Counted from the stretch's first letter, positions 1 through 38,189 are shown. The stretch is DNA of 64,000 nucleotides from an uncultured Candidatus Rokubacteria bacterium (GCA_963805625.1 CAWDVE010000017.1:640001-704000), one strand, 5' to 3'. Notes: generated from the sequence alone by a model not told the origin. Made by a program: numbers and translations.

Positions 1-2032
1 CCAGCTCCCAGCGCACGCGAGTCCGATGGGCGGGCAGCACGAAGTCGAGCGCTTCGTGGTGCGCGTTGAGCAGGAGCAGGAACGTGTCGTCCCGGATGGG
101 CTCTCCTGCCTGGTCCACTTCCTCGATCGCGTCTCCGGCGAACCGGAGGCCGAGACAGCGGGTGAACCCGTTCGTCCACTGCTCGTCTGTCATCTCCTTC
201 CCGTCAGGCCGGAACCAGGAGAGGTCCTTGACCTCCGACCCTTCGATGCGGCGGCCCTGGAAGAAGCGCCGCCGGTGGAAGACGGGATGCGCGAGGCGCA
301 GGCGGATCAGGCGCCGCGTGAACTCGAGCTGCTCCTTGGCGGAGCGGGAGAGCGTCCAGTTGACCCACGAGAGCTCGTTGTCCTGACAGTAGGCGTTGTT
401 GTTGCCCTGCTGGGTCCGCCCGAGCTCATCGCCGGCGAGCAGCATCGGCACGCCCTGGGACAGGAACAGAGTGACCAGGAAGTTGCGGAGCATCCGCTCC
501 CGGAGCGCGGTGACGGCGGCATCGTCGGTCGGACCCTCCACGCCGCAGTTCCAGGACAGGTTGTCGGAGGTACCGTCCCGGTTCTCCTCGCCGTTCGCCT
601 CGTTGTGCTTGTCGTTGAAGCTCACGAGGTCGAGGAGCGTGAAACCGTCGTGAGCGGTCACGAAGTTCACGCTGGCTGACGGGCGGCGGCCTCCCGACTC
701 GTAGAGGTCGCTGGATCCCGTGAGGCGATAGGCGAGGTCCGCCACCTGGCCACCGTCCCCCTTCCAGTACCGGCGGATCGTGTCCCGGTACCGGCCGTTC
801 CACTCGGCCCAGCCGGCCGGGAAGTTGCCCACTTGGTAGCCGCCTTCCCCGAGGTCCCAGGGCTCGGCGATGAGCTTGACCTGGCTGATCAGGGGATCCT
901 GGTGGATCACGTCGAAAAAGGACGAGAGGCGATCGACCTCGTGGAGCTCCCGCGCCAGAGCGGAGGCCAGGTCGAAGCGGAAGCCGTCGACGTGCATCTC
1001 CGACACCCAGTACCGGAGACTGTCCATGAGGAGCTGGACACACCGGGGATGCGTCATGTCGAGCGTGTTGCCGCATCCGGTGTAGTCCATGTAGTAGCGC
1101 CGGTCCTCGGCGACCAGCCGGTAATAGGCCGCGTTGTCGATTCCGCGGAAGCAGAGCGTGGGCCCGAGGTGATTGCCCTCGGCCGTGTGGTTGTAGACGA
1201 CGTCGAGGATGACCTCGATCCCGGCCTGATGGAGCGCTTTGACCATCTGCTTGAACTCGCGCACCTGCTCGCCGCGGACGCCCTCGCTCGCGTAGCGCGA
1301 ATCGGGTGCGAAGAAGCCGATCGTGTTGTAGCCCCAGTAGTTGGTGAGGCCGCGCTCGGCGAGGTGCCGGTCGTGCACGAAGTGGTGGACGGGCATCAAC
1401 TCGACGGCAGTCACGCCGAGGCGCCTGAGGTACTCGATGGAGGCAGGGGCGGCCAGGCCGGCGTACGTCCCGCGTAGCTGCTTCGGGACGGCGGGATTTC
1501 GGATGGTGAAGCCCTTGACGTGCGCCTCGTAGATCACGGTCAGGTGCCACGGAGTGTGCAGCGGCCGGTCGTCACCCCACGTGAACGCGGAGTCCACCAC
1601 GACGCTCTTGGGAACGAAGGGCGCGCTGTCGCGATCGTCCCGCGTCAGGTCCGCGTCGGGATCTCCGACCCGGTATCCGAAGATGGCGTCGCTCCACTCG
1701 CTCGCCCCGGCGATCGCCTTCGCATAGGGATCGAGGACCAGCTTGCGCGCGTTGAAGCGGTGCCCGGCCAGGGGCTCGTAGGGGCCGTCGACGCGGTATC
1801 CGTAGAGGAGCCCCGGCCTGCCTTCCGGGAGGTAGACGTGCCAGACCTGGTCGGTGCGCTCGACCATCGGGATCCGGTGGGTCTCCCCGCCGGGCTCCGC
1901 TGGGTCGAAGAGACACAGCTCGACTCCGGTTGCGTGGTCGCCGAACAGGGCGAAGTTGACGCCGGCCCCGTCCCAGGTGGCGCCGAGGGGGTAGGGGCGG
2001 CCCGGCCGTGTCCGGAGCGAGTCCGCCCTCAT
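1..2032 (-). CDS. glgX: Glycogen debranching enzyme GlgX (GH13 isoamylase), runs off the left window edge
   Basis: Manual translation from ATG at 2032 gives [31 protein letters not shown]. Also present: [33 protein letters not shown] and [11 protein letters not shown]. The start overlaps the upstream stop (ATGA). Confidence 0.95.
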
Positions 2033-3051
2033 TTCCCCGAGCCGGTGCCGACCGGCTCGGTCAGGCGGTCCAGCCACGGGGGCCTGATGCCCAGGCGCTC
2101 GAGGCTCTCGACCACCCGGCGCGGCGATCCCCAGTCACACCAGGTCACGCCGGTCAGTGTCGTGACGGCGAGCATCGGGGTCAGGTTCTGCAAGACGTCG
2201 CGCGAGAAGTTGCCCACGGGGATTGCCGCGCTCACCCGCCGAATGGCTTCGGTTCGAGCTCCGCGTCCGACGGCATGCACCATGCGCTCGAGGCCGGAGT
2301 GGATCCGGGGGACGCACCGCCGGCCGGCCTCGACGAGGGTCCTCGCCTTGGCCACGAACACAAAGGTGTTCCACGATGCCCCGGCTGCCAGGCACGCGTG
2401 CGCTGCGTCCGGGGACGGTTTCTCGACGAATCGATGGACCGCCCGGACCTGGATCCCGCCGGCGCGGCCGAGCGTCGGCCCCGGCTCGATCCACCCGTAC
2501 TCCGTTTCCGCGGCCGTGGCCGGGACCCCCAGAAGGACGATGCGCCCGAAGTTCTCGTCCACGAAGGCGGCTGCCTGGGCGACCTGGGTCATGAAAGCCT
2601 CTTCCTCCAGGACGAGGTGGTCCGACGGAAACACGGCCACGGTGGCGCCGGGAGCCCGTCTCAGAATCCAGTGAGCCGGCAGGAGCACGCCCGCGGCCGT
2701 TCCGCGGTCGGCCGACTGAAGCAGGATGGTCGCGCCATGGCCGGGCATCGACCCCGCCAAGTGGGCTGCGTGGCTCTCGACACTGACGACAACGGTCCGC
2801 TGGGCGGGGATGCGGAGCGCCGCACGGTCCAGGGTCCGCTGGAGCAGGGAGCGGGATCCCGTCAGCGTCACATATTGCTTGGGCCGTTCGTCCCCGCAGA
2901 TGACACGCGTGAGAGGCCGGAGACGAATCCCCTCGCCACCGGCGAGGACGATCCCCCAGAGCTCCGCGGGAGGTGAGGCGAGCGGTGGGGACCCCGACGC
3001 GGCGTAGGTCTCGGGTCTGGCATAGGACGCGACCGCGGTGGGAGGAGTCAT
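2029..3051 (-). CDS. Sugar-phosphate nucleotidyltransferase (mannose-1-phosphate guanylyltransferase-like)
   Basis: Motifs [14 protein letters not shown]...RPKQY, DRGTA, FPSDH, EYGWIE, FVEKP and WCDWG. Start chosen at ATG 3051, just downstream of a sigma54 motif. Confidence 0.88.
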
Positions 3052-3063
3052 GCTGGACGCGGA

Positions 3064-3079
3064 TGCAACGCTGATTCCA
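3064..3079 (-). promoter_or_regulatory. sigma54 -24/-12 promoter
   Basis: Minus strand TGGAAT-CAGCG-TTGCA (GG-N10-GC), upstream of the nucleotidyltransferase-glgX unit. Confidence 0.75.
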
Positions 3080-3182
3080 CGGGATTTCGCCATCCCGCTG
3101 GAGAGACCTGTCGTGAATTTCGTGCAGCAACGCCAATCGCGAATCGGATCGACGCCGGCTAGAGTCCGCAGCTTGAATCCGA

Positions 3183-3214
3183 CGACATCATGTCGCGTGG
3201 GCGACATCCTGACG
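3183..3214. promoter_or_regulatory. 32-bp palindromic enhancer candidate, copy 1
   Basis: CGACA-tca-TGTCGC-gtgg-GCGACA-tcc-TGACG, centred about 146 bp upstream of the predicted start site. Confidence 0.75.
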
Positions 3215-3280
3215 GCGCCGGGCGACGCGACAGTCGTCGGATTTCGAGCTGGCGAGACTATCCCGCGCGGGTTACCGAGT

Positions 3281-3412
3281 TCAAGCGGATGGCCCCTTGG
3301 CGCACTCTGGACACACCTCCCTCTCGCTGTCGTACGCGATACCGTGCGCCTTACACCGAACCATTTGGACCTCGGAGCCCTTCGCCGGCTGGCTAGGCGT
3401 CGGGGTTGTCAC
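3281..3412 (-). CDS. Small hypothetical protein with CxxH...CxxC motif (43 aa)
   Basis: GTG start; sequence TTPTPSQPAKGSEVQMVRCKAHGIAYDSEREVCPECAKGPSA; co-oriented with neighbours. Confidence 0.5.
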   Translation of the reverse strand: MTTPTPSQPAKGSEVQMVRCKAHGIAYDSEREVCPECAKGPSA

Positions 3413-37014: not shown

Positions 37015-37333
37015 CGGGGTCTCCTCCTGAGGTTCGTATCGTGCCGTTGGACGCCCTCGGAAGCTCCGTGAGGCGCCCCGCCCAAGGCGACATCGGGTCG
37101 TTGAATCGTCATCCTGTCGCGAACGGCCCTGGCGACCGTCCGCCGAGCCGCGCCACTGGAGACCGCGTTCTTCCGCGGTCATGCCGGAAATGGCTACAGC
37201 AAGCCGTGGGCCACCCCCCGAGACCTCAAGATTCTCGACTCAAGATTCTCAAGATGTCTGACCGAATGCCTCTGGGCATCCTCCATGCGCCCGCTGGGTC
37301 GAATAGTCTGCTCGGCCTTACTGCGGCTAGCTC

Positions 37334-37365
37334 CGTCACGGTGTCGTCCAAGCGCCAGCCTGTCC
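37334..37365. promoter_or_regulatory. 32-bp palindromic enhancer candidate, copy 10
   Basis: CGTCA-cgg-TGTCGT-ccaa-GCGCCA-gcc-TGTCC, about 87 bp upstream of the predicted start site. Confidence 0.62.
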
Positions 37366-37409
37366 ATGCGAGGCCACGGCCAACGTCCTCCATTGCTCGA
37401 TTTGGCCGC

Positions 37410-37425
37410 CGGCACGACGCTTGCT
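37410..37425 (+). promoter_or_regulatory. sigma54 -24/-12 promoter
   Basis: CGGCAC-GACGC-TTGCT. Confidence 0.8.
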
Positions 37426-37438
37426 CTCGTTGACGTAC

Positions 37439-37999
37439 GTGACTCGCGCGGCCAAACCGGAGTCGAGGAGCACGACGGCCGAGTACCACGACGAGTACTC
37501 GGAGACTCTCGGGGCGGAGTTCCGCAAGCTGCAGGACGCCCTCCTCAGCGACACCGTGAGCATTCTCGCCACGCGCGAGCCCATTCGACTCGCCGAGACG
37601 GCGCGTATCGAGGAAGCCCTAGAGGCAATGCTGGCGCAGGATCACGTGGCGGTGGTCGTGGTCGATGGGGAAGGTCGGCTGTGTGGCATCGCCACCGACC
37701 GGGACTTGCTGAAACGCGCCCGTGCTAGCGATCGCGATTCAGGTCAGATAGATCTGGCAACGGTGATGACGCGTGATCCGGAGACGCTGCGGCCGGACGA
37801 TCGGCTCTGCTACGCAGTGAACCGAATGATGGCGATGAGCTGCCGTACTGTGCCTGTCGTCGATGAGGAGCGCCATCCCGTCGGGATCGTGACCGTCGAC
37901 GACATCGCCAAGTGGCTGGCCGCGCTCTTCCCGGAAGCCATCCTGAACCTGCGACCGGGAGACCGGCTGAAGCGGCCGGCGGATCGTGACGGTGGTTAG
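37439..37999 (+). CDS. CBS domain pair protein
   Basis: VVVVDGEGRLCGIATDRD, VMTRDP, VPVVD..PVGIVTVDDI. The TTG at 37421 lies inside the promoter, so GTG 37439 is preferred. Confidence 0.88.
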   Translation: MTRAAKPESRSTTAEYHDEYSETLGAEFRKLQDALLSDTVSILATREPIRLAETARIEEALEAMLAQDHVAVVVVDGEGRLCGIATDRDLLKRARASDRDSGQIDLATVMTRDPETLRPDDRLCYAVNRMMAMSCRTVPVVDEERHPVGIVTVDDIAKWLAALFPEAILNLRPGDRLKRPADRDGG

Positions 38000-38189
38000 C
38001 ACGCTCCGCCGGCCGGAACGAAGCATGGTCCTGAGTGTGCCGATGATAGCGTCGGCGCTGGTTCTCGAGCCGGGCGTGAGGGAGTTGCCCGCGAGCACAA
38101 GCTCCAGCGGGGCCTGCCACTCACGGGCGTCTCCCGTTGGAGCGACCAACCCCTGGCCGATGGCGACGCGCCATCGTGCAGCACGCTGG

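Follow-up and report, generated by a model that had tools for sequence, protein, structure and literature searches.

The osmY/BON, DUF883 and treYZ-glgX genes of Gammaproteobacteria are under the control of RpoS, and csbD of Bacillota under that of SigB. NtrC-family activators are established to open promoters through ATP hydrolysis via their GAFTGA loop. In Sphingopyxis, csbD and ku-ligD have been reported as direct targets of EcfG (PMC7083833). The NorR enhancer is described as GT-N7-AC units with sites at -192 and -173 (PMC1274295), and a 19-bp step between units has been reported for P. stutzeri hmp (PMC1274295; PMC2831303). In Myxococcus xanthus, the Nla28S-Nla28 pair has been described as controlling a large regulon for starvation and stress (PMC9765219), and in Chlamydia trachomatis the sigma54-CtcC late regulon as serving a hardy form of the cell (PMC7482065). 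The rpoN2 locus of Ralstonia solanacearum is a sigma54 module with its own activators, Rsp1667/1668, and an unassigned role; no metabolic role is reported, and stress and trehalose go unmentioned in the text of that source (PMC4676750).

The locus studied here lies in a window of 64,000 nucleotides from an uncultured Candidatus Rokubacteria bacterium. Like NtrBC, ZraSR, AtoSC and Aquifex NtrC1/NtrC4 (4l4u, 1ny5), it pairs a kinase with a REC-AAA+-HTH activator carrying GAFTGA, and like NtrC-family systems it has -24/-12 promoters with a palindromic enhancer about 60-135 bp upstream. Unlike the named systems, it has its own recognition helix and its own 30-bp site, and about 35 stress-type promoters instead of one or a few operons. 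Its 11-bp palindromic units, in tandem and 19 bp apart, resemble the reported NorR enhancer of E. coli norVW, but there are two units, G(A/T)CA-N3-TG(A/T)C, rather than three, and the activator has a receiver domain where NorR has a GAF domain. The outputs csbD and ku-ligD overlap with those reported for EcfG-PhyR-NepR in Alphaproteobacteria; whereas in the EcfG, SigB and RpoS responses a sigma70-family factor is released or stabilised, control here would lie with sigma54 and an ATPase bound at the enhancer. Nla28S-Nla28 is likewise a membrane kinase with a sigma54 activator, but its tandem 8-bp half-sites, CT(C/G)CG(C/G)AG, are unlike the 30-bp site, and its reported targets are developmental and regulatory, with trehalose unmentioned in the text of PMC9765219. 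The targets reported for Chlamydia sigma54-CtcC are membrane and secretion-effector genes, not a CsbD/trehalose/NHEJ set, and Ralstonia rpoN2 is described as a second rpoN copy, whereas the genome studied has one. No description of such a sigma54-enhancer stress system was found in the literature searched.

Sigma54 motifs and their target genes

A preliminary description had claimed 15 GG-N10-GC motifs in the first 38 kb of the window, and all were found where it placed them (its minus-strand coordinates mark the GC end, the GG lying 14 bases higher). They are listed with score, target and the orthologues keeping the site.

3065..3078, minus: sigma54 motif, 11.2 bits; nucleotidyltransferase-glgX-treY operon; 4/5
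3968..3981, minus: sigma54 motif, 20.1 bits; WXXGXW lipoprotein; 6/6
6966..6979, plus: sigma54 motif, 19.3 bits; right behind the activator gene, toward a receiver-domain gene; 8/8
10784..10797, minus: sigma54 motif, 15.8 bits; small Cys-rich genes and PCC/DUF296 gene; 7/8
14382..14395, minus (14381-): sigma54 motif, 8.0 bits, 17.0 on contig C26; DUF883-like, YqjE-like, DUF3618, DksA-like operon; 8/8
14557..14570, plus: sigma54 motif, 14.9 bits; small hydrophilic ORF; 5/5
16008..16021, minus: sigma54 motif, 10.7 bits; csbD-BON-DUF3309 operon; 8/9
17971..17984, minus (17970-): weak sigma54-like motif, 6.1 bits; AI-2E family transporter; 5.8-7.4 bits in 9/9
18140..18153, plus: sigma54 motif, 12.6 bits; small ORF, PBP1 (absent from the window copy), phosphodiesterase; 7/7
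25852..25865, minus: sigma54 motif, 15.5 bits; treZ, glycogen debranching enzyme, DUF4383; 7/7
26112..26125, plus: sigma54 motif, 20.0 bits; PRC-BON protein and superoxide dismutase; 5/5
27776..27789, plus: sigma54 motif, 14.5 bits; lipoprotein, DUF1328, DUF1344; 7/7
33158..33171, minus (33157-): sigma54 motif, 13.0 bits; glycine-zipper lipoprotein operon; copy on C26
36337..36350, minus (36336-): sigma54 motif, 16.6 bits; PAS hybrid kinase
37411..37424, plus (37410+): sigma54 motif, 18.0 bits; CBS-domain gene, whose paralogue on contig C10 has an identical arrangement of sigma54 site and enhancer

When scored against a matrix of 163 non-coding sites, none of them from the studied region, 13 of the 15 motifs reach at least 10 bits; the others are 17970- and 14381-, the latter with its 17.0 bits in the duplicate copy on C26. 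The 12,859 non-coding bases hold 14 sites of at least 11 bits; 200 resamplings gave a mean of 0.45 and at most 2, and the genome's own non-coding rate predicts 2.6 (P = 6e-7). In non-coding DNA genome-wide, GGCAY-N5-TTGC occurs 143 times, against 13-23 times with N3, N4, N6 or N7; in the first 38 kb the counts are 11 against 0 for the other spacers. The genome's densest 38 kb in sigma54 sites is C17:642-680 kb, with 18. Up to nine genomes of the same genus were compared, and the target gene was found for 12 of the 15 promoters: a site of at least 10 bits is kept in 72 of 75 orthologues, at 11 of these 12 promoters, 17970- being kept as a weak site (an operon-internal control scores -13 to 2.6). 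For 33157-, 36336- and 37410+, an orthologue was not found in the relatives' stretches compared. Altogether, the enrichment over background and the recurrence in orthologous promoters that the preliminary description had anticipated were both found, and the -24/-12 motifs have the exact spacing, position 5' of genes and conservation expected of a sigma54 regulon.

The genes concerned are as follows.

1..2871, minus: nucleotidyltransferase and glgX; beyond the window's left edge come treY, ferritin-like cargo and encapsulin
7029..9105, plus: receiver-domain protein, nucleotidyltransferase, metallophosphoesterase (Pfam)
12593..14330, minus: DUF883-like, YqjE-like, DUF3618, DksA/TraR zinc finger; window copy with frameshifts
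15086..15927, minus: csbD, BON lipoprotein, DUF3309 (Pfam)
21492..25800, minus: treZ, glycogen debranching enzyme, DUF4383; window copy with frameshifts, C26 copy intact
26199..28751, plus: PRC-BON protein, Fe/Mn SOD, lipoprotein, DUF1328, DUF1344 (Pfam/NCBIfam)

Most of the target families named earlier were recovered with Pfam/NCBIfam (CsbD, two BON, YqjE-like holin-X, DUF3618, DUF1328, DUF3309, GlgX, SOD and, in the intact C26 copy, TreZ), together with a PRC barrel; DUF883 stayed under the cut-off (E = 0.01), and the supposed metallothionein is a Cys-rich protein of 76 aa matching no family. Many genes at 13-26 kb are frameshifted in the window and intact on C26 and in relatives; these frameshifts are most likely assembly errors.

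The 30-bp palindrome and its putative activator

Footprinting of csbD promoters from nine other genomes gave the 30-bp palindrome G(A/T)CA-N3-TGTCG-N6-CGACA-N3-TG(A/T)C, and the matrix used to score it was trained without the studied genome. At 11 of the 15 motifs it is present 60-135 bp upstream, in helical phase.

3184..3213, no strand: enhancer, 35.8 bits; 121 bp from the 3078- promoter
4058..4087, no strand: enhancer, 27.7 bits; 92 bp from 3981-, directly 5' of the kinase gene
10888..10917, no strand: enhancer, 34.9 bits; 106 bp from 10797-
14457..14485, no strand: enhancer, one base deleted in the window copy, C26 copy complete (33.8 bits); common to 14395-/14557+
16137..16166, no strand: enhancer, 22.4 bits; csbD promoter, 131 bp from 16021-
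18029..18058, no strand: enhancer, 30.9 bits; between divergent 17984-/18140+
25964..25993, no strand: enhancer, 38.5 bits; between divergent 25865- (treZ) and 26112+ (PRC-BON, sod)
27669..27698, no strand: enhancer, 39.5 bits, perfect palindrome; 92 bp from 27776+
33249..33278, no strand: enhancer, 31.3 bits; 93 bp from 33171-
37335..37364, no strand: enhancer, 28.8 bits; 61 bp from 37411+ and also 138 bp from an additional site, 37212-

The enhancer accompanies 26 of the 34 sigma54 sites of the cluster and duplicate contig, none of the 24 sites of a second sigma54 cluster (C19), 18 of 208 sigma54 sites elsewhere in the genome and 9 of 940 random non-coding places; the reversed matrix gave no match at 15 bits. 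Enhancer-promoter distances follow a period of 10.5-11 bp (Rayleigh p ~0.006; 33 promoters of the studied genome). The 36336- promoter is probably outside the enhancer regulon, because the 30-bp type is absent there. An IHF consensus, with at most two mismatches, occurs in only 5 of 11 csbD promoters, an uncontrolled count.

A kinase-activator pair is encoded between the second and third motifs.

4120..5598, plus: sensor histidine kinase, 492 aa; 2 TM, periplasmic PAS/Cache-like domain, HAMP, HisKA, HATPase (Pfam)
5595..6962, plus: NtrC-family sigma54 activator (REC-AAA+-HTH), 455 aa; putative enhancer binder

The kinase structure model (pLDDT 78) has the WalK and KinD sensor domains as its best solved matches, and a periplasmic sensor suggests one specific cue, not many stresses. 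The kinase gene is directly 5' of the activator gene in 10/10 distant loci compared. The activator has the receiver Asp, Walker A/B, GAFTGA, HTH and adjoining kinase of a sigma54 activator; D53, GAFTGA, the Walker motifs and the helix S[VILM]RTLQR are invariant across 10 orthologues, which group in a single clade (SH-aLRT 100). Among the genome's 39 activator matches, this recognition helix is shared only with the C26 duplicate. The activator was not assigned to NtrC, ZraR, AtoC, GlrR, NorR or PspF, every NCBIfam score being below its cut-off (best AtoC, 455 of 714 bits).

With one mismatch allowed, the palindrome is present in 43 of 46 genomes of the order with an activator orthologue and in 6 of 78 without one, counts in which related genomes are not independent; in genomes outside the order it is present in 0 of 46. 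The three orthologue-bearing genomes lacking such a site are G016, G101 and G162, and the six orthologue-less genomes that do carry the palindrome have 1-4 sites each. Enhancer follows activator in 11 of 12 genera having both states. In six distant genera perfect sites adjoin the activator gene, and because the two are physically linked, the co-occurrence is partly co-location. The palindrome is thus likely the enhancer of the activator encoded at 5595-6962. The wiring proposed in the preliminary description, in which stress outputs would be connected to sigma54 and an enhancer-binding two-component system, is upheld by these sequence data: the output genes carry sigma54 motifs that are enriched and conserved, rpoN is present, and the neighbouring pair is very likely the activator, with the palindrome as its likely enhancer.

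Extent of the regulon and other sigma factors

The locus had also been thought to be a self-contained island, which did not hold: 26 of 42 non-duplicate enhancers lie outside the cluster, and rpoN is on a different contig (single match, C10:411818, E = 1.5e-59). Of the 51 enhancers scoring 15 bits or more, C17:600-680 kb has 16 and the duplicate contig 9; the remaining 26 include sites at ligD, a treS-like gene and ferritin-like genes. The cluster reaches at least 20 kb left of the window. A mobile genomic island is not supported either, since no tRNA lies near the cluster, no integrase is among the genes scanned, GC (0.64-0.73, genome 0.70) is near the mean save at 32-38 kb, and the crotonase-like flank is kept in G003 and G009.

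Region-3 sigma factors number just three: RpoD, a 512-aa RpoD-like protein and an RpoS-like protein of 337 aa (291 bits against the RpoS cut-off of 379). The rpoS-like gene lies 3' of pcm, an acylphosphatase gene and a LysM-M23 (nlpD-like) gene, in pcm-nlpD synteny; since it is present, sigma54 is not merely filling a gap. A Borrelia-type RpoN-to-RpoS cascade was set aside: no sigma54 site of at least 10 bits lies within 600 bp of the start of the rpoS-like gene. The genome contains no group-3 sigma factor, which speaks against a SigB response, and no match to PF22233, the sigma-like domain of PhyR (genome 99.9% complete; Caulobacter control positive), which speaks against a PhyR-NepR-EcfG response, though its outputs csbD and ku-ligD are present.

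A probable stress programme and its alternatives

Through their sigma54 motifs, a common enhancer and one kinase-activator pair, the stress genes of the cluster are probably joined in a general stress-protection programme. The WalK-like PAS/Cache domain of the kinase would detect an outside cue and the kinase phosphorylate Asp53 of the activator, two dimers of which would occupy the two 11-bp units. A DNA loop across the intervening 60-135 bp, with both sites on the same face of the helix, would bring them to sigma54-RNA polymerase; this geometry is observed for the sites, the contact is presumed. ATP hydrolysis via the GAFTGA loop would then open the promoter. Some 35 promoters would then fire. 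Their gene content is observed: trehalose/glycogen turnover (treY, treZ, glgX, treS-like), CsbD, BON, DUF883/YqjE-like, DUF1328, SOD, ligD, topoisomerase IB, encapsulin with ferritin-like cargo, gas-vesicle and envelope genes.

The same wiring might have a narrower job, a specific envelope or osmotic response (ZraSR- or Psp-like), with RpoS keeping the broad one. The lone kinase with its periplasmic domain is consistent with this, as are the many envelope-type members (lipoproteins, BON, cardiolipin synthase, MlaC, PBP), the receiver-domain genes and otsB-otsA that are the core targets in distant genera, and the rpoS-like gene in its synteny. We consider it unlikely, as ligD, topoisomerase IB, SOD, encapsulin and cargo, glycogen and gas-vesicle genes have the breadth of a general stress response. 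Genes for NHEJ, trehalose, glycogen, encapsulin and gas vesicles are generally typical of resting cells, and a regulon holding them could be a developmental programme that produces resting or dispersal cells, like Chlamydia elementary bodies or Myxococcus spores. Such programmes are reported to be run by sigma54 activators (PMC7482065; PMC9765219), but the present regulon includes neither morphogenetic genes nor an activator cascade, is small in most genera and has a palindrome unlike the Nla28 site, so that this reading is very improbable.

Slightly less probable still is binding of the palindrome by another protein, activator or repressor, with the pair a mere neighbour. The genome has about 40 sigma54 activators, including a member of a second family that adjoins csbD in other genera, and the 6966+ promoter has no enhancer within 300 bp, the enhancer being present there in 0 of 8 relatives. 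Against this, perfect sites flank the activator gene in distant genera, enhancer presence tracks the activator within genera, and the second family's candidate motif is absent from the studied promoters. Chance motifs in GC-rich DNA, or artefacts of a poor assembly with many indel errors in the window and a duplicate contig, are refuted by the shuffle, spacer and reversed-matrix controls and by conservation in nine other genomes.

The general stress-protection programme likely grew, in the studied genus, from an osmotic or drying response, because elsewhere the pair controls few enhancer sites, otsB-otsA included. In a sister family, csbD has a sigma54 site in 33 of 40 genomes, without the 30-bp enhancer, and a sigma54 site also precedes csbD in some Planctomycetia and Desulfobacterota. 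It is possible, and we propose it tentatively, that sigma54 together with an enhancer-binding ATPase makes up a fourth general-stress architecture, undescribed to date, across Rokubacteriales and parts of Planctomycetota, Desulfobacterota and Acidobacteriota, in which output promoters were kept while activator and enhancer were swapped between lineages (the present activator in one genus, the second family in sister genera). In the studied bacterium, the sigma54 motifs with their common palindrome would form a stress switch unlike those that model bacteria run through RpoS, SigB or EcfG.

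A conserved sigma54 regulon and its enhancer

The stress-gene cluster of contig C17 belongs to a sigma54 regulon that is real and conserved, and its enhancer has been identified. All 15 sigma54 motifs claimed for the first 38 kb in the preliminary description were found, and 13 of them reach at least 10 bits. With genes called by a purpose-made dicodon model, coding and non-coding labels being approximate, the pattern GGCAY-N5-TTGC has 143 non-coding and 38 coding matches genome-wide, other spacer lengths giving 13-23 non-coding matches; in the first 38 kb it was observed 11 times against 0.95 expected. 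When a matrix built from 163 sites outside the region was scanned, no other 38 kb of the genome was as dense in sites, and the enrichment over background held (14 non-coding sites, compared with 0.45 after resampling the DNA and 2.6 expected at the genome-wide rate). The site was also kept in orthologous promoters of nine same-genus genomes, at 11 of 12 testable promoters and 72 of 75 orthologues, a count that excludes three motifs lacking an orthologue in the compared stretches; the site at 17970 (-) is weak but conserved. Sigma54-like palindromic matches on both strands within coding regions (7769-7817 and 36781-36795) are probably not promoters. Transcript data are uninformative on starts, level and habitat: 24 RNA runs shared at most 0.10 of words, and the five compared consist of contigs of relatives, mostly less than 95% alike, with no pile-ups of starts or ends.

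When the DNA upstream of csbD was aligned for 11 copies in ten same-genus genomes, a palindrome stood out as conserved within otherwise unalignable sequence. A first pattern with a 5-base spacer had no matches; the 30-bp enhancer reads G(A/T)CA-N3-TGTCG-N6-CGACA-N3-TG(A/T)C, two palindromic units of 11 bp set 19 bp apart. Its matrix was refined with 105 sites taken from 18 genomes, the source genome being held out, and enhancer counts in nine training genomes were not used as a test because this would be circular. In the held-out genome, 11 of the 15 motifs have the enhancer 61-133 bp upstream (search range 35-300 bp), and one copy common to two further motifs is a base short in the window but complete on contig C26. 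It accompanies 26/34 sigma54 sites of the cluster and its duplicate, compared with 18/208 elsewhere in the genome, 0/24 in a second sigma54 cluster on contig C19 and 9/940 random non-coding places. Matches of 15 bits are non-coding in 49 of 51 cases, and the reversed matrix gave none in the genome. Enhancer-promoter distances are phased at 10.5-11 bp (p ~0.006 for 33 promoters of the source genome, excluding four distances above 150 bp, one second site and all of C26); the pooled Rayleigh value (p ~1e-10) is overstated because kin are not independent.

The source genome (7.27 Mb, 28 contigs) is 99.9% complete with 6.3% contamination. Its RpoD shares 69% identity with the RpoD of a Candidatus Rokuibacteriota genome, 68% with one from the order and 54% with those of two Binatia/delta genomes, and among homologues of a related activator some carry the name Methylomirabilota; membership in Rokubacteriales is probable. 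Contig C26, from a second strain or haplotype, repeats most of the cluster over 30 kb at 87-99% identity, and genes frameshifted in the window are mostly intact there. It was treated as a duplicate, and the window frameshifts are likely assembly errors. Pseudogene decay was rejected, since the frameshifts are absent from C26 and relatives and one is also filled in most RNA contigs. About 2.3 kb with a PBP1 gene is missing from the window copy near 18300 relative to C26, and a metallo-hydrolase-like gene is duplicated in tandem at 47218-49037 (88% identity over 908 bp).

The candidate activator and its kinase

Two adjacent genes of the window concern regulation:
4120-5598 (+), sensor kinase
5595-6962 (+), NtrC-family activator

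The protein encoded at 5595-6962 is likely the activator of the regulon, as judged from sequence. Orthologues (61-100% identity) occur in 46/124 genomes of the order, and the enhancer pattern, allowing at most one mismatch, is present in 43 of these 46 vs 6 of the 78 genomes without one; the Fisher value of 4e-23 is overstated because kin are not independent. Among 12 genera with both states, the enhancer tracks the activator in 11, and the remaining one ties on presence (1 site vs 13-28). Outside the order, none of 46 genomes has the pattern, though 11 have activator matches of 54-59%. Five named genomes have no activator orthologue (best match 46-49%). In distant genera, perfect enhancer sites adjoin the activator gene, often between its stop codon and a sigma54 site. 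Ten orthologues form one clade in a quick tree excluding activators above 620 or below 300 aa (SH-aLRT 100), and orthologues have in common the helix S[VILM]RTLQR, which in the source genome is otherwise seen only in the C26 duplicate. For the predicted pairing of activator and enhancer this evidence is strong but circumstantial, because site and gene are physically linked.

At 6900-6980, the activator C-terminus is 12-15 aa longer in the source genus than in distant genera. The source genus has a promoter without enhancer right after the activator, where distant genera carry the enhancer. The outer domain of the kinase (residues about 30-165) is predicted to fold like the WalK sensor. Trehalose-6-phosphate synthases with a fused membrane and sensor-like region at the N-terminus were seen in compared genomes (L155:4158-6455, L156:7982-10213) and in the source genome (G000:C10 ~1547000, C8 ~10600); this region weakly resembles the kinase N-terminus (29% over 55 aa, E = 1e-5).

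Other sigma factors and csbD wiring in other lineages

The genome encodes one rpoN, about 40 sigma54 activators and 13 sigma70-family matches, three of them with region 3; of the regulators that the preliminary description had proposed checking, PhyR is absent, and the third region-3 sigma is RpoS-like by synteny but scores below the RpoS cut-off. An RpoN-to-RpoS cascade was rejected, as no sigma54 site lies near the start of this gene. In G029, a compared genome, a group-1/2 sigma70 factor (L153:3254-4582) lies downstream of an enhancer and sigma54 promoter, a possible sigma cascade. The C19 cluster (G000:C19:313000-400000, 24 sites) has its own activator at 330471; its genes, which we take to encode USP, CBS, Hsp20, RtcB, PEP synthase, a cytochrome c nitrite reductase-like protein and a molybdoenzyme, resemble a low-oxygen (DosR-like) regulon.

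The csbD survey suggests that sigma54 wiring extends beyond one genus. In the sister family, where 40 of 62 csbD-bearing genomes were surveyed at one locus each, hand-picked across genera, a sigma54 site lies within 300 bp in 33/40, vs 178/5,783 genes (3.1%) in the source genome. The opposite-strand control was high (12/40), probably due to divergent promoters, and was replaced by controls with altered spacers (25/40 vs 0 and 0). The enhancer was found at 0/40 of these loci, an off-register near-copy being seen by eye in two. A different candidate motif, TTAC-N3-GTAA-N3-TTAC, occurs in 12 of the 33 promoters against 3 expected in shuffles, only a lead from a search seeded by eye; Gibbs sampling on 21 hand-picked promoters gave no clear second motif. 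A second activator family, with a member in the source genome at G000:C10:737449-738861, adjoins csbD in six genomes (L165:9163-10530 in G036, L169 in G039), and in sister genera csbD, ligD, DUF1328, ferritin-like and SOD genes lie beside it. This family and its own candidate motif suggest an activator swap between genera.

Across phyla, in figures that are a lead (one marker gene, the source-genome matrix and three centre genomes chosen for having the site), csbD has a sigma54 site at 15/30 loci from the class that includes a Pirellulaceae genome, 5/10 from the phylum that includes a Desulfobulbaceae genome and 4/30 in Vicinamibacterales (relaxed pattern 10/30, spacer controls 0 and 0). Sites were found at 0/34 loci of named Pseudomonadota, 1/17 of Chloroflexota and Bacillota, 1/11 of other Acidobacteriota and 1/5 delta/Binatia loci.

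Extent and meaning of the regulon

The cluster had been described as a self-contained island. However, enhancers outside the window also precede ligD, GH15 trehalase-like and treS-like genes, a ferritin-like/YihY/ligD operon, a PRC-barrel gene, topoisomerase IB and receiver-domain genes, which makes the cluster the centre of a regulon scattered through the genome; a mobile island was rejected. Eight genomes of the genus have 13-28 enhancer sites each, and other genera 1-5. The ligD and GH15 genes have the enhancer and no above-threshold sigma54 site. In G031 and G038, enhancer sites lie upstream of a receiver-domain gene with otsB and otsA. Left of the window, a gas-vesicle operon and lipid genes stand behind the enhancer. 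This operon (G000:C17:624700-633900) comprises gvpA, K, G and L/F, with a kinase gene and a receiver gene set among them; its enhancer and sigma54 site are 281 bp apart, with a similar gap in G003 and G009. Two small Cys-rich genes of the window (9772-10002 and 10475-10636) are conserved in the genus and match no Pfam family.

Teaching on the general stress response presents three solutions, each built on sigma70-family factors; sigma54 stays silent until an ATPase is activated. A general-stress function is predicted for the present regulon and is likely, and the dormancy role suggested in the preliminary description is conjectural. Its outputs are those of the EcfG (PMC7083833), SigB and RpoS regulons, but its regulators differ, so it is not a member of these three. 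It would work in the same mode as NtrC-family sigma54 systems, and its enhancer resembles the tandem enhancer of NorR (PMC1274295; PMC2831303). A literature search, with subscription journals outside its coverage, retrieved no paper describing this wiring of stress genes to sigma54. The main text of a cross-phylum sigma54 survey mentions no Methylomirabilota, Rokubacteria, CsbD, trehalose or general stress, and reports MscS and Usp genes among the sigma54 targets of Planctomycetia (PMC12316311). Tying the stress output set to sigma54 is a tighter on/off design. For an uncultured lineage it also provides a testable unit, as kinase, activator, 30-bp site and predicted starts could be rebuilt in E. 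coli, and searching with the enhancer places many small genes of unknown function in a stress programme.
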